Positions 6,270 to 61,559 of a DNA stretch of 64,000 nt are shown here, one piece after another; within the stretch, counting starts at the first letter, position 1; every line of letters starts with the position of its first letter. Source of the DNA: Patescibacteria group bacterium (GTDB lineage: Bacteria > Patescibacteriota > Patescibacteriia > 2-01-FULL-39-33); the NCBI GenBank assembly GCA_041650895.1, contig JBAZKF010000001.1, positions 145,685 through 209,684 of the forward strand. Direction: 5' to 3'. The translations under genes were made by a program, and so were the position numbers. Below the pieces are notes generated by a model that worked only from the letters and a program-made list of their open reading frames with translations, was not told the origin of the DNA and searched no databases.

Positions 6270-6276
6270 ACAAAAC

Positions 6277-6308
6277 AACGCCCCCTATTAAGGGAGCGTT
6301 TTAATTTT
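6277..6308. terminator. Bidirectional hairpin terminator between convergent genes
   Basis: AACGCCCCC (6277-6285) pairs with GGGAGCGTT (6292-6300), giving a 9-bp stem with one mismatch. It is flanked by an A-rich stretch on the left and a T-rich stretch on the right. Confidence 0.55.
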
Positions 6309-6312
6309 GCCT

Positions 6313-6720: not shown

Positions 6721-6757
6721 ATGGTTTGATTATAAATTAAAAATAACAAGTTAATGA

Positions 6758-22524: not shown

Positions 22525-22968
22525 CTATCTCTTGAAAGTCCAGAAACGATTTAAACTGAAATTAAAAATAGCGACAATAAACGAAGAGACGGCTTTGGCC
22601 AACAAGTCTGGAATATGCACCAATTCGATCAATAAGCTCAAAAGGCATAAATTCAATGACAAACTTATAATATTGGCAACAAAAAATTTAGCATACTGCC
22701 ATTTCAAACCAGCGCTATGATGACGGAAGGTCCACTTGCGATTCAACTCAAAACTCCAGGTTACAGCCACAGCAAAAGAAATAATGGAAGCGACAAGATA
22801 GTGCAGACCGAATAGGCGGGTCATCAGCCAATAGACGCCCAAATCAACCAAAAAATTAGATGTGCCAACCAGGCAGAATTTGATAAACTGCCGGAACAGT
22901 GACTGTTTGAATAACGGCAACTGATAAATCCTTTCTTTTATCATTTTTAACATAAAAGTCAGAACCAT
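22525..22968 (-). CDS. GtrA family membrane protein
   Basis: FRQFIKFCLVGTSNFLVDLGVYWLM plus four TM helices. ATG 22968 was chosen because the TTG at 22992 lies upstream of the predicted -10 element. Confidence 0.75.
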   Translation of the reverse strand: MVLTFMLKMIKERIYQLPLFKQSLFRQFIKFCLVGTSNFLVDLGVYWLMTRLFGLHYLVASIISFAVAVTWSFELNRKWTFRHHSAGLKWQYAKFFVANIISLSLNLCLLSLLIELVHIPDLLAKAVSSFIVAIFNFSLNRFWTFKR

Positions 22969-22980
22969 TAACTTTATTCC

Positions 22981-23008
22981 ATTATAACACAAATCAAATT
23001 AAGTCAAA
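22981..23008 (-). promoter_or_regulatory. Putative promoter of the GtrA-like gene (divergent pair)
   Basis: On the minus strand: TTTGAC (23008-23003), a 16-nt spacer, then the extended -10 TGtTATAAT (22989-22981). The leader would be very short. Confidence 0.45.
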
Positions 23009-43671: not shown

Positions 43672-45021
43672 TTATTTTTTAAAAATCACTTCCTGCCAAA
43701 AAACCGGTTTATACCAATATCCTCGGCCGTATTTAAGGCGATTCTTATAATCCCTTAAGAACAATAAACTCCAAAAAGGCTTCAATTCGGTATTAATCAA
43801 TCCCGCATATTTTTCAATATTATTCCAATGCAACCTTTTACCGGGGAATTTATTTTTTATCCGCTCGAATAAAACGGTTCCAGGATAAGGGATAACGGGC
43901 AAAAATTGTTTAACTTGCAAATTATTTTCGACAATAAAATCTATAGTTTCTTTAATGGTCTGCCGATTTTCTCCCGGTGCGTTCAATAAAACACAATACC
44001 CTCCGGCTACGCCGTTCTCTTTTAAGATATCAATCGCCGATCGTAAATCTGCCGAAGTTATTTTTTTATTAATTTCAATTAAAACCCTGTCACTGGCGGA
44101 CTCCATGCCTAAATTTACATTAATACATCCGGCTCGCTTGACTAAAGGCATAATCCCCCTACTCTTAATGATATCAGTCGCCCGGGCATTGGCGCCCCAA
44201 GAAAACCTGAGGCCTCGATCAATGATAGCTGAACAAATCCTCTCTACCCTGTCGCCATCAATAAAAAATTCCCAGTCCTGAAAAAAAACTGATTTAATTT
44301 GAAAATTATTTATCAAGTACTCAATCTCTTCTATTACTTTTTCAACACTCCTAACAATATAACGTCCGGGCATCATGGCCTTAAGGCAGAAAACACAATT
44401 GTAAGGGCAGCCGCGCGAAGTCATTATGACAGAAAAAGGCTTCTCATAATCATTGCTGGAATATTTATCCATCGGCAACAGATCATAGGCCGGCAAAGGC
44501 AAAACATCCAGATCAATGATTCTCTCACTTGGATTATTCACGATTTTGCCGCCTTGACGATAAGACAAGCCGGAAACTTTCGAAAATGCCTGCTCTGCGG
44601 CCAGGGTAACAATCAAATCAGACGCGGATAATTCTGGCTCACCCCTGATAATAAAATCAACTTGGCAATTATCAAACACCCATTCTGGCATAGTGGTGCC
44701 GTGACTGCCGATCAATATTTTGTACTTAACCTTTACCCGGTCTATAATCTTAAAAATGTTTTCAATATGGGAATTAGGGCACTCCCAGCGGTCAATCGGC
44801 GTAGAGGTAATAATGAAGGCCTCGGGACCGAAATCATTGACTGCCTGGTAAATGGATTCTAACGGCAAATTCAAAACATTGGCATCCAATAATTTGATAT
44901 CGTGGCCGGCCTGCCTTAAAATAGAGGCGATAATAGCCATCGACAACGGCTGCCTGGCCCTGACATTCATAATTGACTTCTTCTCCTGGTTAAAATTAGG
45001 AATTAATAAAAATATTTTCAT
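43672..45021 (-). CDS. B12-binding-domain radical SAM enzyme (class B), paralogue rS6
   Basis: ATG 45021 (MKIFLLIPNF) is preferred. The track start at 45207 would overlap the upstream gene by 173 nt. LIGSHGTTMPE...IRGEPELSA and SRGCPYNCVFC. Confidence 0.85.
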   Translation of the reverse strand: MKIFLLIPNFNQEKKSIMNVRARQPLSMAIIASILRQAGHDIKLLDANVLNLPLESIYQAVNDFGPEAFIITSTPIDRWECPNSHIENIFKIIDRVKVKYKILIGSHGTTMPEWVFDNCQVDFIIRGEPELSASDLIVTLAAEQAFSKVSGLSYRQGGKIVNNPSERIIDLDVLPLPAYDLLPMDKYSSNDYEKPFSVIMTSRGCPYNCVFCLKAMMPGRYIVRSVEKVIEEIEYLINNFQIKSVFFQDWEFFIDGDRVERICSAIIDRGLRFSWGANARATDIIKSRGIMPLVKRAGCINVNLGMESASDRVLIEINKKITSADLRSAIDILKENGVAGGYCVLLNAPGENRQTIKETIDFIVENNLQVKQFLPVIPYPGTVLFERIKNKFPGKRLHWNNIEKYAGLINTELKPFWSLLFLRDYKNRLKYGRGYWYKPVFWQEVIFKK

Positions 45022-45034
45022 TTTATCGATTAAG

Positions 45035-47610: not shown

Positions 47611-49050
47611 TTATTGCTGCTTTTTACCGCTAAGGATCCACTCGCACAGTGCTAGAAATCCTAAAAAATAAATTTTAACGTGTTTCGGGCTTCTTAGACG
47701 TTTCACATAATTAAGGATAATCCGCGGACGAAAATAAAATTTACGGAAAAACAAGCGATTAGAAGCTATAAGTTCCTCCCGCGTCAAGCCGAACGGCACG
47801 AAAACCGGCTCCCATTCGTTCATTTTTTTCCAATCCTTATCAAAAGTCCCATACTGGGAATAATTGCCGCTGATTTCCGAACCGGGCAATGGCGTCATTA
47901 GAGTGCAATGGAATTCGTCAATTTTAAGTGACAGCGCAAAATCGATCGTTTCTTTGATCGTCTCGCGGGTTTCCCCGGGATGGCCCATGATAAAAAACGC
48001 GCCCACATCAATTCCTGCCCCCTTAGTCCAGTTGATAGCGCTTCTAATCTGCTCCTTAGTGGTGTTTTTCTTAATTAATTTTAAAATGTTTTCATTGCCT
48101 GATTCCACGCCATACCAAACCTGCCAACAGCCCGCCTCCTTCATTACTTTAAACATTTCCGGCTCAACCATATCAACGCGGGCTAAGGCTGTCCAGACCA
48201 AATCCAATTTTTTTTCTTTCAGCAGTTCGCAAAATTTGTAAAGACGCGGCTTAAAAACCGTAAAATTATCATCGCGAAACTGAATCTCCCTGATGCCGTA
48301 TTTATAATAAAGCAACAAGACCAGCTCCATCATATATTCCGCAGAATGAGCCGACAGGACGTTGCCATAAACGCTTCTAGTGCAGAATGTGCACTGACCA
48401 GGACAACCTCTTGAAGTAACTAAAGTTGAAGCGGGAAATTTTTTAACCGTATGAACCGGCGGAGAATATTTGACTAAATCGGGCAATAAATCAAAAGCCG
48501 GTTGAGGTAAGGCGTCAAGATCAATAATTCTGGCACGCGGCGCTGTAATAATAAATTCATCCGACACATCAGATTTAAAAATCAATCCATTAACCTGTCT
48601 TAACTGATCCTTGCTCAAGCCGTTTTGAGATAATATCGATAATAACTCAACCAAGGTCCTCTCACCCTCGCCGATAATCCCCAAATCGAATTTGGGATAA
48701 AGCTTCAGGGTTTCTTCCGGCGCCGTGCTCAAATGATGGCCGCCGATCAAAGTGATTATGCCAGGTTTGATCTTTTTAATTTCCCGAGCAACCGCCGCCG
48801 CGTTATCAATAGAGATAGTAACTGCCGTAAAACCAACAATGGCGGGATCGGCTGCCAAGACTCGTTCTGTAGTTGCAACGGTGCCCAAATCCATAATTTC
48901 CGCATCAATAATACTAACCTCATGACCCGCCGCCCTGACGGCAGCCGCCAAATATACCAGTCCCAAAGGAATAGACTCTCCCCCGCTTTTGCTTTTTATC
49001 CCATATCTTTCTTCTAAAGTTAATGGGGGTTGGACTAAAATTATTCTCAT
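47611..49050 (-). CDS. B12-binding-domain radical SAM enzyme (class B), paralogue rS7
   Basis: 479 aa. LIGGHHLSTAP...IIGEGERTL, SRGCPGQCTFC, C-terminal FFRKFYFRPRIILNYV. Confidence 0.9.
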   Translation of the reverse strand: MRIILVQPPLTLEERYGIKSKSGGESIPLGLVYLAAAVRAAGHEVSIIDAEIMDLGTVATTERVLAADPAIVGFTAVTISIDNAAAVAREIKKIKPGIITLIGGHHLSTAPEETLKLYPKFDLGIIGEGERTLVELLSILSQNGLSKDQLRQVNGLIFKSDVSDEFIITAPRARIIDLDALPQPAFDLLPDLVKYSPPVHTVKKFPASTLVTSRGCPGQCTFCTRSVYGNVLSAHSAEYMMELVLLLYYKYGIREIQFRDDNFTVFKPRLYKFCELLKEKKLDLVWTALARVDMVEPEMFKVMKEAGCWQVWYGVESGNENILKLIKKNTTKEQIRSAINWTKGAGIDVGAFFIMGHPGETRETIKETIDFALSLKIDEFHCTLMTPLPGSEISGNYSQYGTFDKDWKKMNEWEPVFVPFGLTREELIASNRLFFRKFYFRPRIILNYVKRLRSPKHVKIYFLGFLALCEWILSGKKQQ

Positions 49051-49068
49051 AATAGAAAATACTAAAAA

Positions 49069-49764
49069 TTAAAAACGATATTTAATCAGGGTCCAAATAG
49101 CAATTAAACCGTCGCGAAGTTTTATCTTTTTACCTTCTTCTTGCGAGCGGGGAATATAGGAAATCGGCACTTCATGAATCTTAACGCCCTGCCGAGAAAT
49201 CTTGGCTGTTATTTCCGGACAGAATTCAAAACCCTTGGCTTCAATATTTATCTTATCCAAAACTTGTTTGCTGACCATTTTATAGCAAGTCGCCTCATCT
49301 GTTATGGCAGTGCCGTAAAGAAAATTAGTCAACCAAGTCAGATAGACTCCACCCAAATAATAAAACCAGCCGGCCTTAGGACTTTTCTTTCTGGTCAATC
49401 CTAAACGCCTAGAACCATAAACCGCTTGAGCGCCGCATTCTTCTGCTTCATTTATCAATCTTTTCAGATCATTGGGATTATATTCTAAATCAGCATCCTG
49501 AACGACAGCATAATCGCCGGTTGACACTTTGTAACCGGCAGCTACGGCCGCGCCCTTGCCTTGATTTTCAGGCAGATGGATAATGATATATTTATCCTGA
49601 TAGCGATCAAGCACTTCTCGGGAATTATCGGTGGAACCGTCATTGACTATAATAATTTCTTTGTTAACGCCTAAATCAGCTTCCGACAATTTTTGTAAAA
49701 TAGCCCCGATGGTTTTTGCTTCGTTGTAGGCCGGAATAACAATGGAAAGTTTATTGATTTTCAT
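49069..49764 (-). CDS. Glycosyltransferase family 2, polyprenyl-phosphate sugar synthase-like (231 aa, paralogue of 57163..57858)
   Basis: LSIVIPAYNEAKTI, IIVNDGSTDNS, NQGKGAAVAAG, VQDADLEYNP, and C-terminal EEGKKIKLRDGLIAIWTLIKY. Confidence 0.85.
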   Translation of the reverse strand: MKINKLSIVIPAYNEAKTIGAILQKLSEADLGVNKEIIIVNDGSTDNSREVLDRYQDKYIIIHLPENQGKGAAVAAGYKVSTGDYAVVQDADLEYNPNDLKRLINEAEECGAQAVYGSRRLGLTRKKSPKAGWFYYLGGVYLTWLTNFLYGTAITDEATCYKMVSKQVLDKINIEAKGFEFCPEITAKISRQGVKIHEVPISYIPRSQEEGKKIKLRDGLIAIWTLIKYRF

Positions 49765-49768
49765 AATA

Positions 49769-50425
49769 TTATTTCTTTTTGCAAACTAAATAATAACCGC
49801 TAGTTAAAATGCCATTTTCCGGCCGGGAATGCCTGATATCGCCGAACTCACTCTTTATCGGCGAAGGCAGCCAAACCAATAATTTAACTAATAAAAATAA
49901 CGGGATTTTCATTAAGCGACCGCCGAATAAATTGGCTTGAAAACCTATTCTTTGTAATAAAGCGGCCAAAGTATCCTTAGTTGACAACTCATTGCGCAAT
50001 TCGATTATTTCCCAGCCGTCACTAAATAAAAACCTTAGGCCATACTTGGTAAAACGATAGTAATCATTGGGAATATCATGAAGAGGAAAAATAAACCTGG
50101 TAGTCAAAAGCAACACTCCGCCTGATTTCAGGACTCTTTTCATCTCGGCGACGGCTAAGTGAGGCGAATGCAAATGCTCCAGCAATTCAGTACATAAAAT
50201 CAGATCGAATTTATCATCGGTAAAAGGCAACTGATGAGCGTCGCCCACCACATCAACATTAATCCCCGGCCGATGGTCAAAACCGATGCGGTTGGGAAAT
50301 AAACTTTTGTAAGAACCGTCACCACAACCCAAATCAAGCACCAATTTTTCCGTTGACTGGTACTGGGCGATGAAAGCATCGATTTTTTTTCTGGTTATTT
50401 TGGCAGTTAGAAATTCTTTAATCAT
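49769..50425 (-). CDS. Class I SAM-dependent methyltransferase
   Basis: 218 aa. VLDLGCGDGSY, FDLILCTELLEHL, LKSGGVLLLTT. Confidence 0.8.
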   Translation of the reverse strand: MIKEFLTAKITRKKIDAFIAQYQSTEKLVLDLGCGDGSYKSLFPNRIGFDHRPGINVDVVGDAHQLPFTDDKFDLILCTELLEHLHSPHLAVAEMKRVLKSGGVLLLTTRFIFPLHDIPNDYYRFTKYGLRFLFSDGWEIIELRNELSTKDTLAALLQRIGFQANLFGGRLMKIPLFLLVKLLVWLPSPIKSEFGDIRHSRPENGILTSGYYLVCKKK

Positions 50426-50434
50426 TTTTGCCGT

Positions 50435-51553
50435 TTATGAATTAATGAAAGAGACGATTTTTTCAGCGCGCTTCTTCCAAGTATATTTTTCCGCATCGCT
50501 CCGGGCGCAACGAGAGATATTCTCGGCTAATTGCCGTTGCGTCAAAGCCCGGTTAATGCCCGCCGCTAAAAGATCAGAATTATCCGGCTCAACTAAAATA
50601 GCATTATTATCATTTAAAATTTCCCTCAAAGAAGGCAAATTAGAAGCGACTATAGGTACGCCACTGGCTAAATATTCAAAAAGTTTAAGCGGTGAAGTAT
50701 AAAATTGCGATATTTTTTCCTGCCCGGAATTAGGCAAAACCAAAACATCAGCGGCCTTCAGATAGAACGGGATTTGCTTATGCGGCTGATGGCCGAGAAT
50801 TAAGACATTAGCGCTATTGACATTTTTTTTCTTAAAAGCTTCAACATCTTCCTTAGTACCGCCGATAAAAACAACCAGGGATTCATTAGACAGATACCGG
50901 GCGGCTTCAGCCAAAACCTGCGCTCCTTTCCAACCATAAAGATGGCCGGTGTAAACAATCAATTTTTTATCCAACGGCAAATTAATTTTTTTCCTGGACT
51001 CCGTGGCGGTAATATTCAGATCAAACTCAGCCAAATCAACGCCATCGGGAGCAATTAATATTTTATCAGCAGCGATTCCGTTGCTGGCCAGAGCGGATTT
51101 AATAAAATCAGTCAGAACAACAATCCGTTGAAAACACCGCCAAAAAAGACGATGATACGATTTGATTGTTGCAGGCAAGGAGTGAAGTTCCAAAAAAGAC
51201 GATTTAAAAAATAAGCCGAACTGTTCTTCGCGTGTATATATAATATCATACTCCCTGAAAGACACGTAGATTCTGCTGGCTAACAAAAAAGTTGCAGTCG
51301 CCAGCCAAAAAGCCAGATTACCAATTGTTTTATCCAAAAAAATCAAATCTAAACAGGGTAATTCGGTAATCTTAAAATTAGCCGGTAAACCGTAATAGTT
51401 GAAGGGATCGGCTTTAAGATTATTAGAACGCCGCGGTACCACCAATTCAACTTGATGACCCAAAACAGAGAAAGTCTCGCACATTTTCATGATTTGCCAG
51501 CCATGAGCCTTCTCGGTCGGTATTCTGATGTTTGCCAAATAAATTATTTTCAT
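50435..51553 (-). CDS. Glycosyltransferase family 4
   Basis: ATG 51553 (MKIIYLANIRIPTEKAHGWQI) forms an ATGA overlap with the upstream stop. C-terminal KLFEYLASGVPIVASN...EILNDNNAILVEP. Confidence 0.85.
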   Translation of the reverse strand: MKIIYLANIRIPTEKAHGWQIMKMCETFSVLGHQVELVVPRRSNNLKADPFNYYGLPANFKITELPCLDLIFLDKTIGNLAFWLATATFLLASRIYVSFREYDIIYTREEQFGLFFKSSFLELHSLPATIKSYHRLFWRCFQRIVVLTDFIKSALASNGIAADKILIAPDGVDLAEFDLNITATESRKKINLPLDKKLIVYTGHLYGWKGAQVLAEAARYLSNESLVVFIGGTKEDVEAFKKKNVNSANVLILGHQPHKQIPFYLKAADVLVLPNSGQEKISQFYTSPLKLFEYLASGVPIVASNLPSLREILNDNNAILVEPDNSDLLAAGINRALTQRQLAENISRCARSDAEKYTWKKRAEKIVSFINS

Positions 51554-53709
51554 TTTTTTGTTTTTACTAAATAACACATTTGATGGCCGAACATATTAGG
51601 CCAAATATCTTTAAGACGAAAACCATTAGACGATTTAAATCTAACAACATCTAGACCCAAATCATTCAGCCAAATCAAAAAATCCTTATGGCTCCAAAAC
51701 CGCAGGTGTTCTGACGGATGTGTCATCCATTGGGTAAAAAATCTTCCTCCAAACATTAAGCCGAAACGATAACGGTAAAAAGCGGAATTAGGAACTGAAA
51801 TTGCCAAATAGTCGGCATTATCTTTTATTTTAGAGATTAAATCCTCGGGATATTTGATGTGTTCCAAAACCTCTGAAATCACAATGTAATCATATCGGTC
51901 GTCCAAATTAAAATCAGCGCTCTCGATATCGGCTTTTACTCCGTCAATGCCGGCTTGCTTTAAGTTATTGATTACTAATCCGGAAATATCCAAACCACTG
52001 ACCCGGCAACCCTTCTTTTCTTTTAATTCATAAGGCAGACGCGAACTGCCACAGCCAAGATCCAGAATTTTAGCTCCGGGCTTAATCCAATCCATAAAAA
52101 TCACTTCCCTTTCCATTAATTTGCTACGCATCTTGAAGCCGCGCTCTGACCAATACTGATCATAATCAAGTTGTTTGGTGATATTTTTGAAATCAGGGCG
52201 ACGCGTACCCTCAAAGAAGAACGATTTCGAGACGCGAGCTATGATTTTGTCAAAATAATACTTAAGCGCGCGCTTGACTTTGAATAATATAAAATCTAAA
52301 CGCTCTTTTTTGTTACCCAACTTAAGCCAGATTTTTGCCAGCTTCAAAAAGTGGGTTAAGCCTCTCTTTTTTACGCCCTCAAATATCTCCTGACGCCAAC
52401 TCTCAAATAATTTTCCCAACTCCTGGGAATCACTGACGCCAGAACGATTGAATTTGTCCTGGCTTTGGAAAAAAGAGAAATTACAATAATCGGAGGTATT
52501 GATACGACCCTTAAAAAAATCATTAAAAAGCTTCGTCCCTGGCAGGGCGGTAAAGATACTGAAAGAATAATGATCAGCTTTGATTTTCTTGGCGAATTCA
52601 AAGGTTTGCCGCATTTCTTCTTTAGTTTCGCCGGGCAGGCCGATCATAAAGCCGGCTTCGCGACGGATGCCGTGTTTCCGGCAAAGTTCCAGGGCTTTTT
52701 CCACATCGGATAATTTTATCCTTTTATTAATGATTTCATCTAAAACGCGCTGATTACCCGATTCAACGCCAAAATCAAGCTGTAAACAGCCACTTTCGGC
52801 CATTAACTTGATGATTTCTTCATTAACCAAATCCACTCGCGATTGAGCCCCCCAATACAGACCGGCTTCCTTCATAATCTGGCAAACCTTCCTAACATGA
52901 TCGTAATTAGCCGTTAAGGTATCATCAGCAAACCAAATTCCTTCAACGCCATATTTATCCCTTAAAAGATAGATTTCTTTTTTGATGTTTTCCAAACTGC
53001 GATAACGCACCTGACGCCCAAAAACCTGATTGCAGGCGCAAAAAGTGCAGCTGTAGGGACAGCCCCGGGAAGCCATAACCATCACCGCTTTCATAGGGAT
53101 GCCTCGGATAATATCGTCCCAGATCTTAGTATAGTAGGTCATATTCACCTTATCATAAGCCGGCAAGCTTAAATCAGTCAGATCCATATACTCCCGCCGT
53201 TCATTGATGACAACTTCATTATTCTGATCCGGCCAGGCGATGCCCTTCACCTTCCTTAGATCGGGCGACTCCTGCTGTAATTCCTTAATTAATTCAAAAG
53301 TAGTTTGTTCGCCTTCGCCGATAATGGCGGCATCAAAGCCGGAATTAACTACGCCAATCGGATCGGCTGTAGCTTGAGGCCCGCCGATAATCGAAAAAAC
53401 TTTGAGTTCTTTTTTAATCCTCTGATTCATTTCCACAGCTTCGGCAATTTCCATGGTCGTGGCAGTAAAACCGATTACTTGCGGCTTAAACTCTAAAACA
53501 GCCTTAATGATCTCCTCCTTGGCTCTTTCACGATTATCGTATTGATAGCCTCTGTCCGCGAATATTTTCCCGTCGATAATCAAATTATCAAAACCATGAT
53601 CCCGCAAATATCCGGAAATATACATCAAACCCAAAGAATAACGATGCTCCTTGAGCCGTTTAGGGGGAAGAATAAAAATCAAATCTTTATCTTGGCTAAT
53701 TTTTATCAT
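51550..53709 (-). CDS. Fusion protein: B12-binding-domain radical SAM (paralogue rS8) + C-terminal class I SAM methyltransferase domain
   Basis: 719 aa. IIGGPQATADP...IIGEGEQTT and SRGCPYSCTFC are followed, from about residue 520, by KILDLGCGSSRLPYEL...YDYIVISEVLEHI (methyltransferase motifs I-III). Confidence 0.85.
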   Translation of the reverse strand: MIKISQDKDLIFILPPKRLKEHRYSLGLMYISGYLRDHGFDNLIIDGKIFADRGYQYDNRERAKEEIIKAVLEFKPQVIGFTATTMEIAEAVEMNQRIKKELKVFSIIGGPQATADPIGVVNSGFDAAIIGEGEQTTFELIKELQQESPDLRKVKGIAWPDQNNEVVINERREYMDLTDLSLPAYDKVNMTYYTKIWDDIIRGIPMKAVMVMASRGCPYSCTFCACNQVFGRQVRYRSLENIKKEIYLLRDKYGVEGIWFADDTLTANYDHVRKVCQIMKEAGLYWGAQSRVDLVNEEIIKLMAESGCLQLDFGVESGNQRVLDEIINKRIKLSDVEKALELCRKHGIRREAGFMIGLPGETKEEMRQTFEFAKKIKADHYSFSIFTALPGTKLFNDFFKGRINTSDYCNFSFFQSQDKFNRSGVSDSQELGKLFESWRQEIFEGVKKRGLTHFLKLAKIWLKLGNKKERLDFILFKVKRALKYYFDKIIARVSKSFFFEGTRRPDFKNITKQLDYDQYWSERGFKMRSKLMEREVIFMDWIKPGAKILDLGCGSSRLPYELKEKKGCRVSGLDISGLVINNLKQAGIDGVKADIESADFNLDDRYDYIVISEVLEHIKYPEDLISKIKDNADYLAISVPNSAFYRYRFGLMFGGRFFTQWMTHPSEHLRFWSHKDFLIWLNDLGLDVVRFKSSNGFRLKDIWPNMFGHQMCYLVKTKK

Positions 53710-54775
53710 ATTTGTTTTTGGGGCCTAATAACTCTTCAATAAGACCGCCATCTAACAATTGTTTGACTAAAATTTCCGGCCGGCATAATCGGCAATAAAT
53801 CTCATAACCATTATCGGCGATTTTTTCATAATTTATTCTACCCTCTTTCAGCGCTAAGATTTTAGACGCCAAATCCTGGGCATCGGCCAAACGGCAAAAA
53901 ACCGCATCTTGGCCGTCCGTAAGCAATTCCCTGATAGCCGAAGAATCACCGGTCAAAACCGGCCGCTTGGCCGCTAAGCCCTCATAAACCTTATTAGGGA
54001 TAACTCTTTTAGCTTTATCAGTATGGCCGAATATACCTAGGCAAACATCAGCCTCCGCCAAATAGCCCCTTAAATTATCAATGGACACGGGCTCTATAAA
54101 ATTAACATTACTGACTTTAAGCCGGCTCGCCAAGTCAATTATTTCCCGGTAAGTCTGACCGTGGCCGATAATATTAAATTTGATATTTTCCCCCTCTAGA
54201 ATTTTCGTCGCTTCAATAATATACTCTATGCCCTGTAAAGGAATAAAACTGCCATGAAAATGAACCAAAAAATAATCTTTTTTCTTAGGAGTAATAGGAA
54301 AAATAACCTTATCATCACAACCGACTAAAACCCGATAAAACTTTTTTCTCTCCAACTTTAATTCTTTTACAAAATAGTCAATCTGGGCATTGGTATCCAA
54401 TAAAATTTTATCCGCCAAACGGCAGGATAACCAATCCAATAACCAGTAATACCTTCCTTTAAGGCTTTGCGCTTTAACGATTTTCCTATCTTCAACCATG
54501 GAATCAAAAAAAGAGTAAAAAGCGTCAAAAACAATCGGTTTAACGGTTAAAAGCCTGGCCAAAATCATGGCCTGAAACCCCGGAAAACCAACGATCATAA
54601 TATCATATTTCTTACGGATTGACCAGTGTTTTTTAATTAAATCCCAATACTTCAACGGCCCTTTGACGCTTGTTCGGCATTCAATCACATCAACGCCGTT
54701 TAACTTAAAACCGCCAAGCAAAATCCTATTGCGGCTATAATCAGGATCATAAATTCCGAAATAACAAATAATCAT
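53696..54775 (-). CDS. Glycosyltransferase family 4-like (GT-B)
   Basis: 359 aa. MIICYFGIYDPDYSRNRILLGG at the N-terminus and C-terminal PNKVYEGLAAKRPVLTGDS...LLTDGQDAVF. Confidence 0.75.
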   Translation of the reverse strand: MIICYFGIYDPDYSRNRILLGGFKLNGVDVIECRTSVKGPLKYWDLIKKHWSIRKKYDIMIVGFPGFQAMILARLLTVKPIVFDAFYSFFDSMVEDRKIVKAQSLKGRYYWLLDWLSCRLADKILLDTNAQIDYFVKELKLERKKFYRVLVGCDDKVIFPITPKKKDYFLVHFHGSFIPLQGIEYIIEATKILEGENIKFNIIGHGQTYREIIDLASRLKVSNVNFIEPVSIDNLRGYLAEADVCLGIFGHTDKAKRVIPNKVYEGLAAKRPVLTGDSSAIRELLTDGQDAVFCRLADAQDLASKILALKEGRINYEKIADNGYEIYCRLCRPEILVKQLLDGGLIEELLGPKNKYDKN

Positions 54776-54779
54776 AATA

Positions 54780-55514
54780 TTATAGTTTGCCGAATTTAAT
54801 CATGGCTCTGAATTGAACCGGGCTGACGGCAGAATCGACGGCATTGCGTTTGAGCAACCATCGGTCGCTCTTAGGTCTGACAACGCCCTTAGCCACAGTC
54901 AAAGCCGCCTTAAAGCCGCTAGCTTTCAGTAACCCAATGATTTGCTGGTTATAGCGACCATAGGGATAGGCAAAATAAGACACCGGTTTGCAATATTCCC
55001 GTTCAATGAAGGCTTTGGACTCGATAATTTCCTGCCTAGCCTCAGTCAAACTGATTTTAGTCAGCTTGGCATGGCTGACGGTGTGGGGTTCAAAATCAAT
55101 CAAACCGGAAGCGGCCATCTCCGAAACCTGATCCTTGTCCAACAATGGCAGATCAATAGACGGCAAACCGGTCGCTAAAAAAATCGTAGCGGGAAAATTA
55201 TATTTTTTCAATAAAGGAAAAGCTATGGAATAATTGTCTGTATAACCGTCATCAAAAGTAATGGCGACTGTCCGAGGTGGAATTTTACCTGCCGTAAGAT
55301 AGTCCAATAATGCAGACAAAGAAACAATATTATATCGCTGTTGTTTCAGATAAGCCAACTGAGCTGAAAAATCCTGGGACTCAACGGTGAAAAATCTGCC
55401 ATTATCGCCTACGGAATGATACATCAAAATAACTGCGCGATTAGGCAGGGCGGGGAGAAAGGCCAGTAAGCTAGATAAAATATTTTTTAAAAAAAACTTA
55501 ATTCTCTTCGCCAT
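54780..55514 (-). CDS. Polysaccharide deacetylase (NodB homology domain)
   Basis: 244 aa. AITFDDGYTDNY (TFDD), FPATIFLATG, EPHTVSHAKL (HxxxH), YFAYPYGRYN. Confidence 0.85.
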   Translation of the reverse strand: MAKRIKFFLKNILSSLLAFLPALPNRAVILMYHSVGDNGRFFTVESQDFSAQLAYLKQQRYNIVSLSALLDYLTAGKIPPRTVAITFDDGYTDNYSIAFPLLKKYNFPATIFLATGLPSIDLPLLDKDQVSEMAASGLIDFEPHTVSHAKLTKISLTEARQEIIESKAFIEREYCKPVSYFAYPYGRYNQQIIGLLKASGFKAALTVAKGVVRPKSDRWLLKRNAVDSAVSPVQFRAMIKFGKL

Positions 55515-56589
55515 AGGCTTTTTTGATATTAACGACTAAATTTTTAATACTATAAGAAGCTACGACAATGCGACGCAACTCAACAGCCATAACCTGCTTC
55601 TCGGATGAATCCAATTCAGACAATTTCTTTATTTTGACCGCCAATTCCCGACTGTCAGCTTTTTCCAATAATAACAAATCTTGGTAGTCGCCCAGGATCA
55701 CGGAAAAAGTTTGATTATAAACTACGGCCGGCACGCCACAGGCCAACGATTCCAAAACCACTTTGTCCAATCCCCCGGTGGGGCACAAGTTAATGCTTAA
55801 ATCGGCTTGCTGATAATAATAAGGCAGGTCCTTATTGGGGATATTGCCTATCCAATCAATATAATCTTCCAGTCGGCGTTTTTTTATTTCCTCTTTCAAT
55901 AAGGCAGCGTATCTCAAACCATCAAGATTCGGCGGTGAGCCGATAAAAGACAAGGTGATATTTTTTATTCCTAATTCATGCACCAAAATATCAACAGCTT
56001 TAATCAATAATAATTGATTTTTTATTTCGCTGATCCGGCCGACGCTGACGATTTGTAATTTATCCTGTCGAGCCGTCGCCCAATCTTTAAGACAGAATTT
56101 ATCAATATCAATGCCATGGCCGACGATTTTCACTTTGGCACTAGCAAGCCGGAAACTTTCGGGCGAGGCGGTAAAAATAATATCAGCCAACAATTCAGCT
56201 AATCTTAATTTAAAATTAACCGCTTTATGCGCATACCAGAGGCCGATAATTTTGCCCTGCAAACGCCAGATCAAACCAGCCAGAATGACATAAACAACAT
56301 TCATGTGAACAAAAACAGCATCATAATCATGGCGAACCAACCATAAATATTTATAAAAACGCCACAAGTAACGCCAACGCGACGGCCTGTCTTCCTTGCC
56401 CAAAGATAAAACCCTGACATTGGCAGGCAAATCATACTTACCTTTATATAGGCAGATAACAGTCACTTGAGAAAAATTATTGGCAAACTCTTTAAGCCAA
56501 TCATGAAAAAATCCCAACAGACCGTCGGCGTCATCCACTTTCTGAGTCAAGATTAATAATTTCAATTTTTTATTTTTTGGCAATGGCAT
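55498..56589 (-). CDS. Glycosyltransferase family 4
   Basis: 363 aa. GT-B C-terminal half with GRISEIKNQ, GGLDKVVLESLACGVPAVV. Confidence 0.8.
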   Translation of the reverse strand: MPLPKNKKLKLLILTQKVDDADGLLGFFHDWLKEFANNFSQVTVICLYKGKYDLPANVRVLSLGKEDRPSRWRYLWRFYKYLWLVRHDYDAVFVHMNVVYVILAGLIWRLQGKIIGLWYAHKAVNFKLRLAELLADIIFTASPESFRLASAKVKIVGHGIDIDKFCLKDWATARQDKLQIVSVGRISEIKNQLLLIKAVDILVHELGIKNITLSFIGSPPNLDGLRYAALLKEEIKKRRLEDYIDWIGNIPNKDLPYYYQQADLSINLCPTGGLDKVVLESLACGVPAVVYNQTFSVILGDYQDLLLLEKADSRELAVKIKKLSELDSSEKQVMAVELRRIVVASYSIKNLVVNIKKAYGEEN

Positions 56590-57172
56590 ATAAATTCAAA
56601 CCTAATTCGAAGCTGCCGCCGGTGATTTTATCGGCCGCAAAGCCGGTGGCGGAAAACTGTTTAAATAATTCCTGTCGACTATAGAACTGCTGATGCTCAC
56701 CGATCTCATCCGGTGAAACTATTTTAAACGCGGCCAATAACGACAGCAGACCCTTAGTTTTTCCCCAGGGAGTCGTCACTATAAGCAACCCGCCGGGAAC
56801 AAGCGCTCGATAAGATTGAGCCAGAATATTTAAAGCCGCGGTTTCATCCAAATGTTCCAAAACTGCCAGCATGGTTACAACATTAAAACAACTGGGACTG
56901 ACCGGCAAATTATCGCCGGTTTTGAATTCGTATTTTTTTAAGCTAACTCCGTCGATCATTCCTTCGCTGACCGATTTATCCAATCCGACTTTGGCCGAAA
57001 ACTTAACCTGCGCCAAAAAATAAGGATAAGAACCGCAGCCGATATCAAGAATAGCTCCCGACCTTAAATCAGCAGGAATCAACCTGTCAACTTTATTAGC
57101 CCGACGCCGGGCCAAGTATTTCTCTAAGACGCCATACCCCCTGGTAGGAGCGGCGGAACCGGTTATTTCCAT
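56570..57172 (-). CDS. Class I SAM-dependent methyltransferase
   Basis: 200 aa. ILDIGCGSYPY, FNVVTMLAVLEHL, LVPGGLLIVTTP. Confidence 0.8.
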   Translation of the reverse strand: MEITGSAAPTRGYGVLEKYLARRRANKVDRLIPADLRSGAILDIGCGSYPYFLAQVKFSAKVGLDKSVSEGMIDGVSLKKYEFKTGDNLPVSPSCFNVVTMLAVLEHLDETAALNILAQSYRALVPGGLLIVTTPWGKTKGLLSLLAAFKIVSPDEIGEHQQFYSRQELFKQFSATGFAADKITGGSFELGLNLYAIAKK

Positions 57173-57858
57173 AAGTTAAACTTAATAATATACCAAATCG
57201 CCGCCAAACCATCTTTCCAGCTTATTTTCTTGCCCTCTTCATAAGTGCGGCCGGCATAAGAAATACCGACTTCATAAATCCGGAATTTACCCCTGGCTAT
57301 CAGGGCGGTAATCTCCGGTTCAACGCCGAATCGATTGGCAGTCAGGCGAGTTTTCAGATAATCAATAACCGGACGATTGAACGCCTTATAGCAAGTCTCC
57401 ATATCTGTTAAGGTCAAATTACTCATAATATTGGAAAAAATAGTCAAAAAAGTATTACCCAGATAATGCCAAAAAAAGAAAACACGGTGAGGTTTGCTGG
57501 TAATGAAACGAGAACCATAAACAACATCAGCCTTGCCGTCAATTATCGGCCCCAATATTTCCTGGTACTCTTGCGGATTGTATTCTAAGTCAGCGTCTTG
57601 AATAATCAATAGATCGCCGGTTGCCACATTAAGGCCACGTTTGATGGCCGAGCCTTTGCCCTCGTTCTTATCCTTTAGAATTACGACGCATTTATCCCGC
57701 GGGCTTGAAATAATATCTCTAGTGCCGTCGGTGGAACCATCATCAATAATAATAATTTCCTTCTCTACGCCGGCAAGCGGCGCTGCCTCCACCTGGCGCA
57801 GTAGTTCCAAGATAGTTTTATGTTCATTATAGACTGGTATGATAACTGACAATTTCAT
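57163..57858 (-). CDS. Glycosyltransferase family 2, polyprenyl-phosphate sugar synthase-like (231 aa, paralogue of 49069..49764)
   Basis: LSVIIPVYNEHKTI, IIIDDGSTDGT, NEGKGSAIKRG, IQDADLEYNP, and C-terminal EEGKKISWKDGLAAIWYIIKF. Confidence 0.85.
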   Translation of the reverse strand: MKLSVIIPVYNEHKTILELLRQVEAAPLAGVEKEIIIIDDGSTDGTRDIISSPRDKCVVILKDKNEGKGSAIKRGLNVATGDLLIIQDADLEYNPQEYQEILGPIIDGKADVVYGSRFITSKPHRVFFFWHYLGNTFLTIFSNIMSNLTLTDMETCYKAFNRPVIDYLKTRLTANRFGVEPEITALIARGKFRIYEVGISYAGRTYEEGKKISWKDGLAAIWYIIKFNLWK

Positions 57859-57873
57859 AAAAATAATTAATAT

Positions 57874-59346
57874 TTAATCGCGTTTAGTATTGATGTCCGG
57901 AGATTTAGGCAAGAAAAAAGAGACTAAAGCCATAAAACCATCAAACAAAATTTTTATATCGTCTAATGATCTAATGCTAAAAATCTTCTTAAGGATGAAT
58001 TTCGGACGAAAATAAAAACTGCGATACATGATTTTATATAAATTCTTTATTTCTTCCGCTGAAAGATTCTCCAATCTCATAACCGGCTTAGCCAAATTAA
58101 AATCATCCCAATTTTCGCTCAACAACAAATCACGTTCCTTGGCCCAATTAAACATGGCCGTGCCGGGAAACGGCGTAGTAATATTGACGATCAGCAAATC
58201 GGGATTTATTTTCTTAACAAAACGGATGTTCTTTTCAATCACTTGGCGACTGTCGCCGGGATTGCCGACCATGAAAGCCAGACGGCATTCTATCCCCGCC
58301 TGCTTAGTCCATTTGACGGCATTGATCACTTGCGGCAAATTGATTTTTTTATTGATATTCTTCAATACGGCCTCATCAACATTTTCCACCCCATACATGA
58401 TCTGATGACAACCGGCGTCTGACATTTTCCGCAACATGGCCTCGTCAACATAATCAACTCGGGCAAAACACGTCCAAGACAAATCCATTTTATTTTTTAT
58501 CAGCAGATCGCACAAGTCAATGACGTTCTGACGAAAAACAGTAAAAGTATCATCATAAAACATGATCTGCCTGATACCGTAATTATCGGCCAAGTATTTT
58601 ATCTCGGCAAAAATCCCGGTGGCCGACTTAAAGATCATCTGATCACCCAAGGTTTTATTGCAGAAAGTGCAACGCCCCGGACAACCTCGGCTAGTCATTA
58701 AACTCATGGCCGGCAACTTCTTATACGAGCCCTTAGCCGGCCGATATTTATCAATCGGCAATAAATCATAAGCCGGCAAAGGCAGATCATCCAAATTGGC
58801 AATCCGCCGACGCGGCGCGTTACGGATTATTTGTTTTTCGCCATTCAATTCTTTCTTATAAACCACGCCGTCAATCTCTTCAATCTTCTTGCCGGATAAT
58901 ATTTCTCCCAAAGTAATCTCCCCTTCGCCGATAACCACCGCATCAACAAATGGTTGATTAATAACCTCATCAGTAACAAAGGTTGCATGAACGCCACCGA
59001 AAATAATCAAAGCATTAGGATAATATAATCGGCAAATTTCCGCCGCCTGATAAGCCTTTTTAATTTGTCCGGTGGTGGCAGTAAAGCCGATCACTCTAAT
59101 ATCCCTGTGATGATCAACAAAATTTTCCTTTAGATAATCGCCGAAGGCCTGGACCGAGGGGCAGGAAACTTCACAATCAATTATCTCTACACTTTGATCC
59201 TGTTGACGGACATAGCCGGCAATGGAAGCCAGCCCCAAAGGAGGGAAATTTGAGTTAATCTCACGCCAAATATTATTCTCATCGCCATAATAATCAGGCG
59301 GAGCGATCAACAAACAATCCAAATTTTTTTGATTATCTTGCGACAT
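57874..59346 (-). CDS. B12-binding-domain radical SAM enzyme (class B), paralogue rS9
   Basis: 490 aa. IFGGVHATFVT...VIGEGEITL, SRGCPGRCTFC, C-terminal MYRSFYFRPKFILKKI. Confidence 0.9.
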   Translation of the reverse strand: MSQDNQKNLDCLLIAPPDYYGDENNIWREINSNFPPLGLASIAGYVRQQDQSVEIIDCEVSCPSVQAFGDYLKENFVDHHRDIRVIGFTATTGQIKKAYQAAEICRLYYPNALIIFGGVHATFVTDEVINQPFVDAVVIGEGEITLGEILSGKKIEEIDGVVYKKELNGEKQIIRNAPRRRIANLDDLPLPAYDLLPIDKYRPAKGSYKKLPAMSLMTSRGCPGRCTFCNKTLGDQMIFKSATGIFAEIKYLADNYGIRQIMFYDDTFTVFRQNVIDLCDLLIKNKMDLSWTCFARVDYVDEAMLRKMSDAGCHQIMYGVENVDEAVLKNINKKINLPQVINAVKWTKQAGIECRLAFMVGNPGDSRQVIEKNIRFVKKINPDLLIVNITTPFPGTAMFNWAKERDLLLSENWDDFNLAKPVMRLENLSAEEIKNLYKIMYRSFYFRPKFILKKIFSIRSLDDIKILFDGFMALVSFFLPKSPDINTKRD

Positions 59347-59351
59347 AGCTT

Positions 59352-61559
59352 TTAAAGGAATCGACTAAAAAACGCTCTGAATCCGTCACTGGTCAACAAC
59401 CATAAATAGTCAACCAAAACAATAACGATAACGACCGCAACCCGACTCGGCCAGCGGTAAAAATATTTTCTTAACCCGTTAACGGCCAACAAGGTTAATA
59501 GCAAAGCCAGGACAAAATACAAACGAGATGACACACCGGTCCAAAGCAAAAACATAAACGACGGCAGAATCAGGCACTTAACCAGGAACCTCTGATCGGC
59601 GGTAAACTCCCGCCATTTAATCAATCCTAACGGCACCAAAAGCCAAGCAGCCAGATAAACGCCGACGATACTCTTAACAACAAAAAACGGCTGATATTCG
59701 GAACCGCTGGGAGCGCTAATGCCCAGTTTATACCAATCCAAATATGAATAATGATAAATGAAATAAACCACGATTTGCCAAGCGATTAAGGGCAAGCCGA
59801 CCGCTAAGGTTGATAAAAATAATTTTTTGAGTTTTTCGGCTCGAGGCAGTTGCGGATGGAAACATATCACCAGATACAGGAAAGCCATACCCAAACTGCT
59901 ATATTCTTTCCATAACATGCCAACAACAACCATCAACGAAGTTAAAAATAAATTAAAGTTGTTAGGCCGTTTATAAAATCTAATGACGCCGATAGCGGCC
60001 AAAACCCAGAATAATTGGGCGCCCGACTCGGTAAACAAATCCAAGCCATACTTAAGTAACGGATAGGAAGAAATATAAATCAACGCTCCCAGAAGCGCCA
60101 TTCCTCTATTTTTAAAAAACAAATAAAATAAAACGTAAACGGCTAAAGCCAAAAAAACATAAAATATAATCGCCTCTATCTCAAAAGCTAACGATAGATT
60201 GCCACCGGTTAAAAACGACAGTCCGGCAATACCCATAGGCCCCAACGGTTTTAAAATTCTGGAAGGAAAACTCTCCGCCATTTGTCCCATAAACAGCTTA
60301 GCCGTTTCCATATACTGATAAGCATCGCCGTTAATGCTAAAACCGACAAAATTGAGCCGAATAAACACGTTCAACGCTACCGCGGTTAAGATTAAAAGAA
60401 TCGGCCAAAAATGATTATTGGTCGACTTGGTCGGCCGGCACTTTTTGTCTATGGCTGTTTGCCAGCTTTTCAGATAAAGCGCCAAATTTTCCTCTCGGCC
60501 GGGCAAAATGTTAATCGCCGATTCGGCCGACTGGCTGAGTTGCCGGCGCAAGCCAATATTCTGAATAATCTTTTTCATGGCGTCAGCTAATTTTTCTTCG
60601 TCGCCAACGGGCGTGATTAATGCGCTGACTCCGTCTTTCAACACCTCACCGGCGCAACCGACATCAGTCATCACTACCGCCAAACCGCAACTGGCGGCTT
60701 CTATTATCACCATCCCCCAACCCTCATAATCAGAACTCAAAACATAACTATCGGCTGAGTTGTAATAATCATAAATATTGTCAGTCCAACCGATCAAAAA
60801 GATTTTATCCTCCAAGCCGGATTCTTTTATTTGTTGGGCGAGTTTGTCTTTTTCCGGACCGCGACCGACTATAAGCAAAACCGCCTCCGGCAATTGCCGG
60901 GCAACCGTGGCGAAAGCTCTGATCAGCAACGGCAGATTTTTCTGTTTTACCAATCGAGCCATAGTCAAAAAAACAGTTTTGCCGACTAAGCGGCCGAAAA
61001 TCTCCGGCTTAGTTTCGCTGAATTGCTTCTCGGGCTTAACATAGACAGGAACAACAACAATTTTATCTTCGGCTATATGCAAATCATTAACCAAAGTATC
61101 CTTTATCCGCTCACTGACTGCGCGCACGCTGTCGGCTCGCTTAATCAGCCAGCGCCCCAGATAATAACGGCAAAAGTTAATAGGATTTTCATTGCGCCAA
61201 TAAGTCGCGCTAAAAAAATCGCCATGTTCCTGAATATTCAAAGCGCTCTTGAATTTCCTAGCCAGCAATAATCCCATCAGCGACAATTCAAAAGGATCTT
61301 GAACCGTTATGACATCATAATTATTCTGGCGGAACAGTTTTTTCGCTAACCGATACATATTGAATAGTGCCGCTAATCGGTTGCCGCCACCCGTGCCGTA
61401 AGCCGTTACTTTTTCTGATAATTTAATTTCTTGCGCTGGCGTAGCGGGCACGATAATATCATAAGCGTCCGTCATAACGCCATACTCAATCAAACGCCGA
61501 GTTACGGGTGATGAGGAAACGAATACGCCTTTATCGGTGCCTAAGTTTAATACTTTCAT
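59352..61559 (-). CDS. Fusion protein: N-terminal GT4 glycosyltransferase + C-terminal polytopic membrane (GT-C-like) domain
   Basis: 735 aa. Residues 1 to about 370 are GT-B (KQKNLPLLIRAF...SDYEGWGMVIIEAASCGLAVVMTDVG). Residues from about 385 onward are about 11 TM helices, starting at NHFWPILLILTAVALNVFIRL...INGDAYQYMETAKL. Confidence 0.8.
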   Translation of the reverse strand: MKVLNLGTDKGVFVSSSPVTRRLIEYGVMTDAYDIIVPATPAQEIKLSEKVTAYGTGGGNRLAALFNMYRLAKKLFRQNNYDVITVQDPFELSLMGLLLARKFKSALNIQEHGDFFSATYWRNENPINFCRYYLGRWLIKRADSVRAVSERIKDTLVNDLHIAEDKIVVVPVYVKPEKQFSETKPEIFGRLVGKTVFLTMARLVKQKNLPLLIRAFATVARQLPEAVLLIVGRGPEKDKLAQQIKESGLEDKIFLIGWTDNIYDYYNSADSYVLSSDYEGWGMVIIEAASCGLAVVMTDVGCAGEVLKDGVSALITPVGDEEKLADAMKKIIQNIGLRRQLSQSAESAINILPGREENLALYLKSWQTAIDKKCRPTKSTNNHFWPILLILTAVALNVFIRLNFVGFSINGDAYQYMETAKLFMGQMAESFPSRILKPLGPMGIAGLSFLTGGNLSLAFEIEAIIFYVFLALAVYVLFYLFFKNRGMALLGALIYISSYPLLKYGLDLFTESGAQLFWVLAAIGVIRFYKRPNNFNLFLTSLMVVVGMLWKEYSSLGMAFLYLVICFHPQLPRAEKLKKLFLSTLAVGLPLIAWQIVVYFIYHYSYLDWYKLGISAPSGSEYQPFFVVKSIVGVYLAAWLLVPLGLIKWREFTADQRFLVKCLILPSFMFLLWTGVSSRLYFVLALLLTLLAVNGLRKYFYRWPSRVAVVIVIVLVDYLWLLTSDGFRAFFSRFL

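Follow-up and report, generated by a model that had tools for sequence, protein, structure and literature searches.

For the stretch of 64,000 nucleotides analysed here (assembly GCA_041650895.1 of a Patescibacteria group bacterium, contig JBAZKF010000001.1, positions 145,685 to 209,684; hereafter the window), two parallel glycosylation cassettes were proposed. Each would combine a polyprenyl-phosphate sugar synthase of glycosyltransferase family 2 (GT2), a B12-binding radical S-adenosylmethionine enzyme (B12-rSAM) for tailoring of the sugar and a membrane transferase of the GT-C type, a reading which is held with moderate confidence. With genes named after their start coordinates in the window, cassette A was proposed to consist of GT2 49069, B12-rSAM 47611 and a GT-C domain that 45035 carries in fusion with a SPASM rSAM domain. 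Cassette B would comprise GT2 57163, B12-rSAM 57874 and the GT-C domain of 59352, a protein in which this domain is fused with a family 4 glycosyltransferase (GT4).

The initial annotation described eight genes of this region as a module of an rSAM, a GT2, a class I methyltransferase (MTase) and a GT4 that was present twice. All eight open reading frames (ORFs) were found in the ORF listing at the coordinates given there, all on the minus strand, and the assigned families agreed with Pfam and NCBIfam (B12-binding and Radical_SAM, Glycos_transf_2, Methyltransf_23/11 and Glycos_transf_1). The mirrored gene order on one strand was real at the level of families, the order in the direction of transcription being rSAM-GT2-MTase-GT4 (59346 to 55498) and then GT4-MTase-GT2-rSAM (51577 to 47611). 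The GT-C domains beyond each rSAM, which are the most consistent partners, were left out of that module. A GT-C transferase is needed to use a polyprenyl-phosphate sugar, and because one lies beyond each rSAM, the symmetry is one gene wider: GT-C, rSAM, GT2 ... GT2, rSAM, GT-C. The minus-strand gene array was uninterrupted, with neighbours overlapping by 10-28 nucleotides (nt); in a promoter and terminator scan of 44-64 kb the counts were near the shuffled expectation, and the modules did not stand out as separate transcription units. The genes in question, with lengths in amino acids (aa), are as follows.

59352..61559, minus strand: GT4 N-terminal half and proposed PMT_2-like GT-C C-terminal half (~59352-60449); proposed transferase of cassette B
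57874..59346, minus strand: rSAM_B, B12-binding radical SAM, 490 aa (PF02310 and PF04055, CPGRCTFC)
57163..57858, minus strand: GT2_B, polyprenyl-phosphate glycosyltransferase-type GT2, 231 aa (PF00535)
56570..57172, minus strand: class I SAM methyltransferase, 200 aa, variable accessory of cassette B (Methyltransf_23)
55498..56589, minus strand: GT4, 363 aa (Glycos_transf_1)
54780..55514, minus strand: polysaccharide deacetylase (Polysacc_deac_1, IcaB/PgaB-like), with one hydrophobic segment at residues 12-30
53696..54775, minus strand: GT4-like glycosyltransferase, 359 aa (Glyco_trans_1_4)
51550..53709, minus strand: B12-binding rSAM fused to a MetW-like class I methyltransferase, 719 aa (Pfam)
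50435..51577, minus strand: GT4, 380 aa (Glycos_transf_1)
49769..50425, minus strand: class I SAM methyltransferase, 218 aa (Methyltransf_23/11)
49069..49764, minus strand: GT2_A, polyprenyl-phosphate glycosyltransferase-type GT2, 231 aa (PF00535)
47611..49050, minus strand: rSAM_A, B12-binding radical SAM, 479 aa (PF02310 and PF04055, CPGQCTFC)
45035..47599, minus strand: PMT_2 GT-C N-terminal part (~46130-47599) and radical SAM/SPASM C-terminal part, 854 aa; proposed transferase of cassette A
22525..22992, minus strand: GtrA-family small membrane protein (PF04138 GtrA_DPMS_TM, 113 bits), candidate polyprenyl-phosphate-sugar flippase

Enzyme classes in the two proposed cassettes

The two GT2s matched PF00535 with scores of 123 and 112 bits, and their DxD-type motif QDADLEY was invariant in the family alignment. 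Comparison with PDB sequences and folds was run for 49069, whose best matches by phmmer were DPMS 5mlz of P. furiosus (E 4e-18), ArnC and GtrB; with its AlphaFold2 model (predicted local distance difference test score 85.4), the top 21 Foldseek matches were all ArnC, GtrB or DPMS, with TM-scores of 0.61-0.81. These matches supported the suggestion of the initial annotation that the 231-aa GT2s are enzymes of the polyprenyl-phosphate sugar synthase type, which would give them the corresponding activity. The NCBIfam scores of the two GT2s lay below the cutoffs, being 100 and 112 bits for AglJ (cutoff 325), 71 and 69 for ArnC (529) and 59 and 62 for PpgS (370). In a hydropathy scan neither GT2 contained a hydrophobic segment or a transmembrane (TM) helix. 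The NCBIfam PpgS model has 226 positions, and this TM-less type of about 230 aa matches the window GT2s; human DPM1 is likewise TM-less. Judged by its sequence, 49069 is such a TM-less DPM1/PpgS-like form.

Both 47611 and 57874 carried an N-terminal B12-binding domain and a radical SAM core with the CxxxCxxC motif, and both were intact. The closest solved structures to rSAM_A by sequence were AprD4 (6fd2, E 1e-21), 9ccb, OxsB and CysS. Since AprD4 is named a radical SAM diol-dehydratase in NCBIfam and not a methylase, methylation could not be assumed; C-methylation and rearrangement, between which the sequence cannot decide, are candidate chemistries only. HpnJ (TIGR03471) gave 186 bits with 47611 and 219 bits with 57874, both under its cutoff of 577.6, while the scores of the other rSAMs in the window were 144-252 bits. 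The cysteine motif common to 47611 and 57874 was CPG[QR]CTFC, in place of CP[YH]xCxFC in the eight other B12-rSAMs of the window. This CPG motif was also present in the GT2-adjacent rSAMs of L002, L071, L086, L088, L090, L170 and L171, where L followed by a number designates related loci from other genomes, all found through a GT2 search.

Two further rSAM genes of the array may be mentioned here. The fusion of an rSAM with a MetW-like methyltransferase at 51550-53709 was kept in L001 (87%) and L085 (81%). For the rSAM gene at 43672-45207 the longest ORF overlaps the 3' end of 45035 by 173 nt; from the length of its L001 orthologue (449 aa), translation probably begins near 45021.

In 45035 the N-terminal half scored 33.4-34.4 bits with PMT_2 (PF13231), above the cutoff of 26.1, while the C-terminal half matched Radical_SAM and SPASM. 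In L002 (12191-13585 and 13578-14825) and L171 the two halves were separate adjacent genes placed after rSAM_A, with identities of 49-50% for the GT-C and 51-57% for the SPASM rSAM. Because they are fused here and adjacent elsewhere, the GT-C and the SPASM rSAM would work together, by Rosetta-stone reasoning. A hydropathy scan revealed about seven hydrophobic segments in each of the 45035 N-terminal and 59352 C-terminal domains. The C-terminus of 59352 had 32-33% identity over >300 aa to stand-alone PMT_2 proteins (L002, L090), and the gene of L171 was annotated as PMT_2. A homologue of 59352, P0254, is a fusion of GT4 and PMT_2, and profile-profile comparison of the 59352 C-terminal family with the 45035 N-terminal family gave a probability of 89% (E 2e-6); the PMT_2 protein of L086 and the fusion of L169 bridge the two families. 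From this indirect evidence, the C-terminal half of 59352 was proposed to be a PMT_2-like GT-C. Another protein, encoded at 31653-33488 (611 aa, about ten hydrophobic segments, PMT_2 at a sub-threshold 18.9 bits), may be a third GT-C of the cluster.

Conserved neighbourhoods and the proposed pathway

The neighbours of 11 orthologous GT2 genes outside the window and L001 were counted by hand, with the following result.

PMT_2-type GT-C adjacent or one gene away: 8/11 (9/11 counting the interrupted L087)
Cognate B12-rSAM adjacent: 5/11
Any B12-rSAM adjacent: 6/11
GT4 within two genes: 8/11
Class I MTase nearby: 3/11

The steadiest neighbour of the GT2s is thus a PMT_2-type GT-C, and the kind and order of the MTases and GT4s nearby change from locus to locus. 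In support of the initial annotation, other Patescibacteria also have GT4 and class I MTase genes close to these GT2s.

The gene order of the window, mirror included, was found only in its close relative L001 (79-91% amino-acid identity), and more distant relatives differed. In the Falkowbacteria loci L002-L004 the order was GT2_B, PMT_2, GT2_A, rSAM_A, PMT_2 and SPASM rSAM, the first PMT_2 having 32% identity to the 59352 C-terminus, the second 49% to the 45035 N-terminus and the SPASM rSAM 51% to the 45035 C-terminus. L171 shared this arrangement of six genes, with a GT4 resembling 50435 ahead of it. L170 contained a 53696-like GT4, a 49769-like MTase, a 50435-like GT4, GT2_A, rSAM_A and a PMT_2 (43%). 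The 50435 orthologue was directly upstream of the GT2 cassette in L170 and L171, and rSAM_A orthologues followed immediately after GT2_A in L002, L170 and L171.

On the side of cassette B, L086 had the order PMT, PMT_2, GT2_B, rSAM_B (68%) and GT4, and L168 the order 59352-like gene, rSAM_B (78%) and GT2_B (80%), followed by another B12-rSAM in the place of MTase 56570. A GT2 was next to an rSAM (46%) in L071; the orders were rSAM_B-like, GT2, 56570-like MTase and PMT_2 in L090, and GT2, rSAM_B-like, rSAM, GT-C and 55498-like GT4 in L088. In L085, from a second Buchananbacteria, GT2_B and an rSAM of a different clade were followed by orthologues of 55498, 54780, 53696, 51550, 50435 and 49769, the last with a 45035 orthologue directly after it; neither GT2_A nor rSAM_A was found there. 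Three loci were without B12-rSAM: L087 (GT2_B, a restriction-modification insertion, PMT_2, GT4), L169 (GT4+PMT_2 fusion, GT2_A, 55498-like GT4, MTase) and L172 (SPASM rSAM, GT2_A, 55498-like GT4, MTase).

Two insertions were observed in these loci. Between GT2_B and PMT_2 of L087 (10743-13084) there was a pair of N6_N4_Mtase and RE_EcoO109I genes with two small ORFs. In L002 (6754-8163; also in L003 and L004) a GIY-YIG gene split a GT4 gene (5778-6749 / 7047-7397), followed by helix-turn-helix and Fic genes; this insertion looks like a selfish element.

The biochemistry of the cassettes, which we infer from the enzyme classes and their conserved adjacency, could proceed as follows. At the cytoplasmic face, the TM-less GT2, assigned to its class by sequence and fold, would load polyprenyl phosphate with one sugar taken from a nucleoside diphosphate sugar (NDP-sugar). 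The adjacent cytoplasmic B12-rSAM, as its conserved position suggests, would alter the lipid-linked sugar or its nucleotide precursor, by C-methylation or by a radical rearrangement of the HpnJ type. A flippase, for which the GtrA-like 22525 is a candidate, would move the product across the membrane, and the PMT_2-type GT-C could hand the sugar on to an external acceptor, either a glycan or a protein, as expected from its family. Two different modified sugars would be delivered by the two cassettes, while the neighbouring GT4s, class I MTases and deacetylase, a conserved and freely shuffled neighbourhood of Patescibacteria, may build and trim the acceptor glycan. In the initial annotation each module was suggested to install and modify one sugar; two parallel sugar-installing units are a reasonable part of that suggestion, and the four-gene module as the unit was given up.

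Several observations weigh against this pathway. HpnJ was rejected as a specific clue to the rSAM chemistry, as HpnJ/BchE was the best NCBIfam match, far below cutoff, of 9 of the 10 B12-rSAMs of the window (39562 had none at the threshold used). The C-terminal domain of 59352 had no direct Pfam match. Ten of the 37 genes in the cluster encode B12-rSAMs, so their adjacency to the GT2s inside the window is not in itself significant. The cognate rSAM was not adjacent at L085, L087, L169 and L172, nor at the B-type GT2s of L002 and L171, and with about half of the orthologous GT2 loci in this state the rSAM would be optional. At L088 (8001-10098) and L090 (3298-5378) the GT2 was nearer to A (52-53%) and the adjacent rSAM nearer to rSAM_B (43-46%), from which the GT2 and rSAM types are not strictly co-inherited. 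All related loci were ascertained through their GT2, so that the association with rSAMs was gauged from the GT2 side. In the wider GT2 family, surveyed over loci flanked on each side by at least 3 kb and drawn from the generic-motif matches listed, a B12-rSAM was within 3 kb in only 5 of 69 loci; the coupling to rSAM therefore seems specific to genomes of Patescibacteria, DPANN and the groundwater Elusimicrobia type.

The main competing explanation was that the GT2/GT-C pairs serve ordinary decoration of the Gtr or Arn type, and that the B12-rSAMs beside them have no functional link with these pairs. They would be adjacent through dense packing in an rSAM-rich cluster, and their substrates would be the completed glycan, NDP-sugars of the GT4/GT2 main chain, lipids or a peptide. 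This explanation is credible, since half of the GT2 loci are without the cognate rSAM and the ascertainment was through GT2; with so many B12-rSAMs in the cluster adjacency is expected fairly often, and the different-clade rSAM beside GT2_B in L085 fits it as well as the mismatched types of L088 and L090. However, rSAM_A orthologues (70-73%) were placed between GT2_A and PMT_2 in the same order in three separate lineages, enzymes of the rSAM_B clade abutted a GT2 in L086, L168, L071, L088 and L090 despite shuffled surroundings, and the CPG motif marked the GT2-adjacent rSAMs. We regard unrelated rSAMs as a serious minority possibility, and tailoring by the adjacent B12-rSAM as the preferred account.

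Divergence of the paired genes

The four gene pairs were compared by all-against-all BLASTP and semi-global alignments of the window proteins. The GT2 pair 49069/57163 had 44-45% identity over 226-230 aa (188 bits), and the other GT2s of the window reached at most 30% and 75 bits. For the rSAM pair 47611/57874 the identity was 35.8% with 292 bits by BLASTP within the window; the rival pairs 27833/57874 (36.4%, 273 bits) and 27833/29255 (36.5%, 271 bits) were slightly higher in identity. When 28 B12-rSAMs were placed in a neighbour-joining tree (100 bootstraps), the tree was star-like and did not join 47611 and 57874; it cannot decide whether they are sisters, and only its tight clades are quoted because some supports were possibly misplaced by re-rooting. 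The MTase pair 49769/56570 had 27% identity over 99 aa (E 1e-4), and each member scored higher with 25307; the GT4 pair 50435/55498 had 25% over 192 aa (41 bits), and 50435 scored 72 bits with 63010.

By pairwise identity, the comparison by which the initial annotation had proposed to judge the pairs, the GT2s held as closest paralogues and the rSAMs did not. The rSAMs had been called clear closest paralogues, for which the top bit score and the shared CPG motif speak; their identity was not the highest and the tree was star-like. The GT2s are indeed both of 231 aa and share QDADLEYNP, GKG and EEGKKI..DGL.AIW, but these columns are invariant across the family alignment, and 229-235 aa is the normal length of the family. 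The resemblance of the MTases and GT4s was, as had been stated, at the family level only. By these comparisons the GT2s appear to be the only clearly specific paralogues, and the rSAM pair ranks first only marginally. The nucleotide comparison of the two modules detected no similarity in the MTase and GT4 pairs; short co-linear remnants were all that was left, in the rSAM genes over 144 nt at 72% and in the GT2 genes over 58 nt at 79%, instead of a repeat across the whole unit.

The GT2 family was very large, with 7,924 and at least 8,000 matches at E <1e-20 in the searches with the two GT2s, and consisted of two subfamilies, A with 49069 and B with 57163. Orthologues of GT2_A with 60-66% identity were found in proteins labelled Portnoy-, Falkow- and Pacebacteria, and with 60-65% in the loci L002, L169, L170, L171 and L172; orthologues of GT2_B were found with 58-80% across Patescibacteria. 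Among the matches listed, GT2s of Chloroflexota, Planctomycetota, Bacteroidota, Melainabacteria, Actinomycetota and DPANN had 39-53% identity to 49069, and so were as near to GT2_A as GT2_B is. In a GT2 tree rooted by an outgroup, clade A (96% bootstrap) and clade B (100%) were not sisters, and other phyla stood between them.

Relatives in other genomes were also found for the other genes. Orthologues of the window GT2s and rSAMs occurred on Falkowbacteria-, Pacebacteria- and Buchananbacteria-like contigs and on metagenome contigs, with 70-73% identity for rSAM_A (L002, L170, L171) and 78% (L168) and 68% (L086) for rSAM_B, relatives of which at 43-46% adjoined GT2s in L071, L088 and L090. GT4 50435 had orthologues at 40-66% (L085, L170, L171, L172) and GT4 55498 at 30-51% near these GT2s or GT-Cs (L085, L087, L088, L169, L172). 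MTase 49769 had orthologues in L085 (72%) and L170 (37%); relatives of MTase 56570 at 30-34% adjoined a GT2 in L089 and L090, while a gene of the 56570 type was absent beside GT2_B in 6 of the 6 B-type orthologue loci examined. For the genes between the cassettes, orthologues were found of deacetylase 54780 in L085 (51%) and L171 (43%), and of the GT4-like 53696 in L085 (70%), L086 (48%) and L170 (46%).

With orthologues at 58-80%, in-window identities of 44% (GT2) and 36% (rSAM) and GT2 clades that are not sisters, a local duplication of four genes does not account for the region, which on balance appears to hold two anciently diverged cassettes.

Chance was considered as a second explanation of the mirror, in which the pattern would simply arise in a cluster rich in GT2, GT4, MTase and rSAM genes. 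When family labels were permuted among the 37 genes of the cluster, two non-overlapping four-family runs appeared in 5.5% of the shuffles and a mirrored pair in 0.33%. The pattern is nominally unusual, but this test was post hoc, as the pattern had been chosen on the same data. The former frequency, and the loss of the order outside near relatives, are consistent with chance, but the GT2s form a pair within one specific subfamily, and both have a cognate-type rSAM and a GT-C beside them in an arrangement reproduced in other genomes, which makes chance improbable for the pattern as a whole. Where the MTases and GT4s are placed is best explained by chance or shuffling, and the mirror order is an outcome of lineage-specific shuffling without mechanistic meaning.

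The rearranged duplication put forward by the initial annotation, in which one four-gene module was copied within the locus, turned into mirror order, and each copy installs and modifies one sugar, fared worst. It can draw on a mirror order that is real and rare among the label shuffles, on 49069/57163 as clearly the closest GT2 pair, on the bit score and CPG motif of the rSAM pair and on the recurrence of GT4 and MTase genes near these GT2s in L169, L170 and L172. However, only two of the four pairs are specific at best, the MTases and GT4s are not mutual closest paralogues, and orthologues of the GT2s, rSAMs and GT4s in other lineages have 40-80% identity against 25-44% between the copies in the window. 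Judged as a segmental duplication, the unit lacked nucleotide similarity over its whole length, its DNA similarity being residual, and not all pairs were reciprocal closest paralogues; other-phyla homologues separate the GT2 clades. L085 keeps 50435 and 49769 without GT2_A and rSAM_A, an rSAM takes the place of 56570 in L168, and the gene order differs in every lineage beyond the near relatives of the window. As a recent event this duplication is largely refuted, and in general it is very unlikely.

Two side observations concern the distribution of the GT2s. In L009 (9962-11420), from a metagenome-assembled genome of Deltaproteobacteria, an A-like (49%) and a B-like (60%) GT2 stood in tandem with no adjacent rSAM, and the co-occurrence of both subfamilies therefore reaches beyond Patescibacteria. 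P0121/P0242, on a contig of 19,276 bp labelled Dehalococcoidia at NCBI, had 93% identity to GT2_B and 88% to 59352; this contig is probably mis-binned Patescibacteria.

Wider cluster and relation to known systems

The cassettes belong to a single uninterrupted surface-glycan cluster, at least 45 kb long (19258-63990), of a Buchananbacteria-like Patescibacteria genome, in which ten B12-rSAM genes and two SPASM rSAM genes were identified, together with a polyprenyl glycosylphosphotransferase (23051), a Wzx-type flippase (38217), the GtrA-family protein (22525), a sugar epimerase/dehydratase and two deacetylases. The GtrA-like 22525 is remote from both cassettes (about 25 kb) and may serve as their flippase only as a candidate. 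A protein identical to 59352 (P0241) sits on a contig of 957,791 bp, which was taken as the genome size; on that size the cluster would take up about 5% of a minimal genome, probably that of a symbiont, for radical chemistry on surface glycans. Such organisms are usually unable to make cobalamin.

Three-component systems of polyprenyl-phosphate glycosylation are represented by GtrA/GtrB/GtrC, CsbB/GtcA/YfhO and Ppm1/PMT. The window resembles them in having a GT2 of the DPMS/GtrB/ArnC class beside a multi-pass GT-C, and a GtrA-family protein in the cluster, and the logic would be the same, with the sugar loaded on polyprenyl phosphate inside the cell and transferred outside. Unlike GtrB, ArnC and archaeal DPMS, which have C-terminal TM helices, the window GT2s are without TM; a B12-rSAM gene lies between GT2 and GT-C, each GT-C domain is joined in one protein to a GT4 or a SPASM rSAM, and the GtrA-like gene is 25 kb off. 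In the ArnC-ArnD-ArnE/F-ArnT pathway for lipid A aminoarabinose, a lipid-linked monosaccharide made by a GT2 is modified on its carrier before flipping and is then transferred by a GT-C. ArnC was the best structural match of 49069 (TM-score 0.81), but its identity was only about 23-25%, and the modifying enzyme of that pathway is a deformylase and not an rSAM. Deacetylase 54780 was not favoured as an ArnD analogue, since its N-terminal hydrophobic segment and its likeness to IcaB/PgaB suggest work outside the membrane.

A lipid-linked sugar is rearranged by an rSAM in the hopanoid cyclitol-ether pathway of HpnI (GT2), HpnK (deacetylase) and HpnJ (B12-rSAM), and by the calditol synthase Cds (PMC13459092). 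The locus likewise contains a GT2, a B12-rSAM and a deacetylase, and HpnJ was the best NCBIfam match of 47611 and 57874; however, with scores so far below the cutoff this resemblance is generic, hopanoid genes are absent from the window, and its deacetylase is of a different family and looks extracytoplasmic. GenK and GenD1 are cobalamin-dependent radical SAM sugar C-methyltransferases (PMC4340712, PMC5819394). They and AprD4 are, like the window enzymes, radical SAM enzymes of the class B type, and there they act on sugar carbons; their substrates are soluble aminoglycoside intermediates, unlike the carrier-bound sugar considered here, and no specific sequence relationship was seen.

In the literature searched on radical SAM enzymes in connection with Patescibacteria, Parcubacteria or the Candidate Phyla Radiation (CPR), or with glycosyltransferases or polyprenyl phosphate, no description of the association of GT2, B12-rSAM and GT-C was found, and the cassette would seem to be a variant, not yet described, of a pathway type already known. 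A speculative generalization, less likely than not, is that in Patescibacteria, some DPANN and groundwater Elusimicrobia a dedicated cobalamin-type rSAM with the motif CPG[QR]C[TV]FC would modify the carrier-bound sugar between GT2 and GT-C, by which C-methylated or carbocyclic surface sugars might be obtained without B12 synthesis of their own. The mirrored arrangement itself is of little consequence, and it is the recurrent trio of GT2, B12-rSAM and GT-C that matters. If these rSAMs do act on lipid-linked sugars, a new tailoring step would be added to a well-known pathway, and a concrete handle would be given on the cell-surface chemistry of CPR bacteria and on their dependence on external cobalamin.

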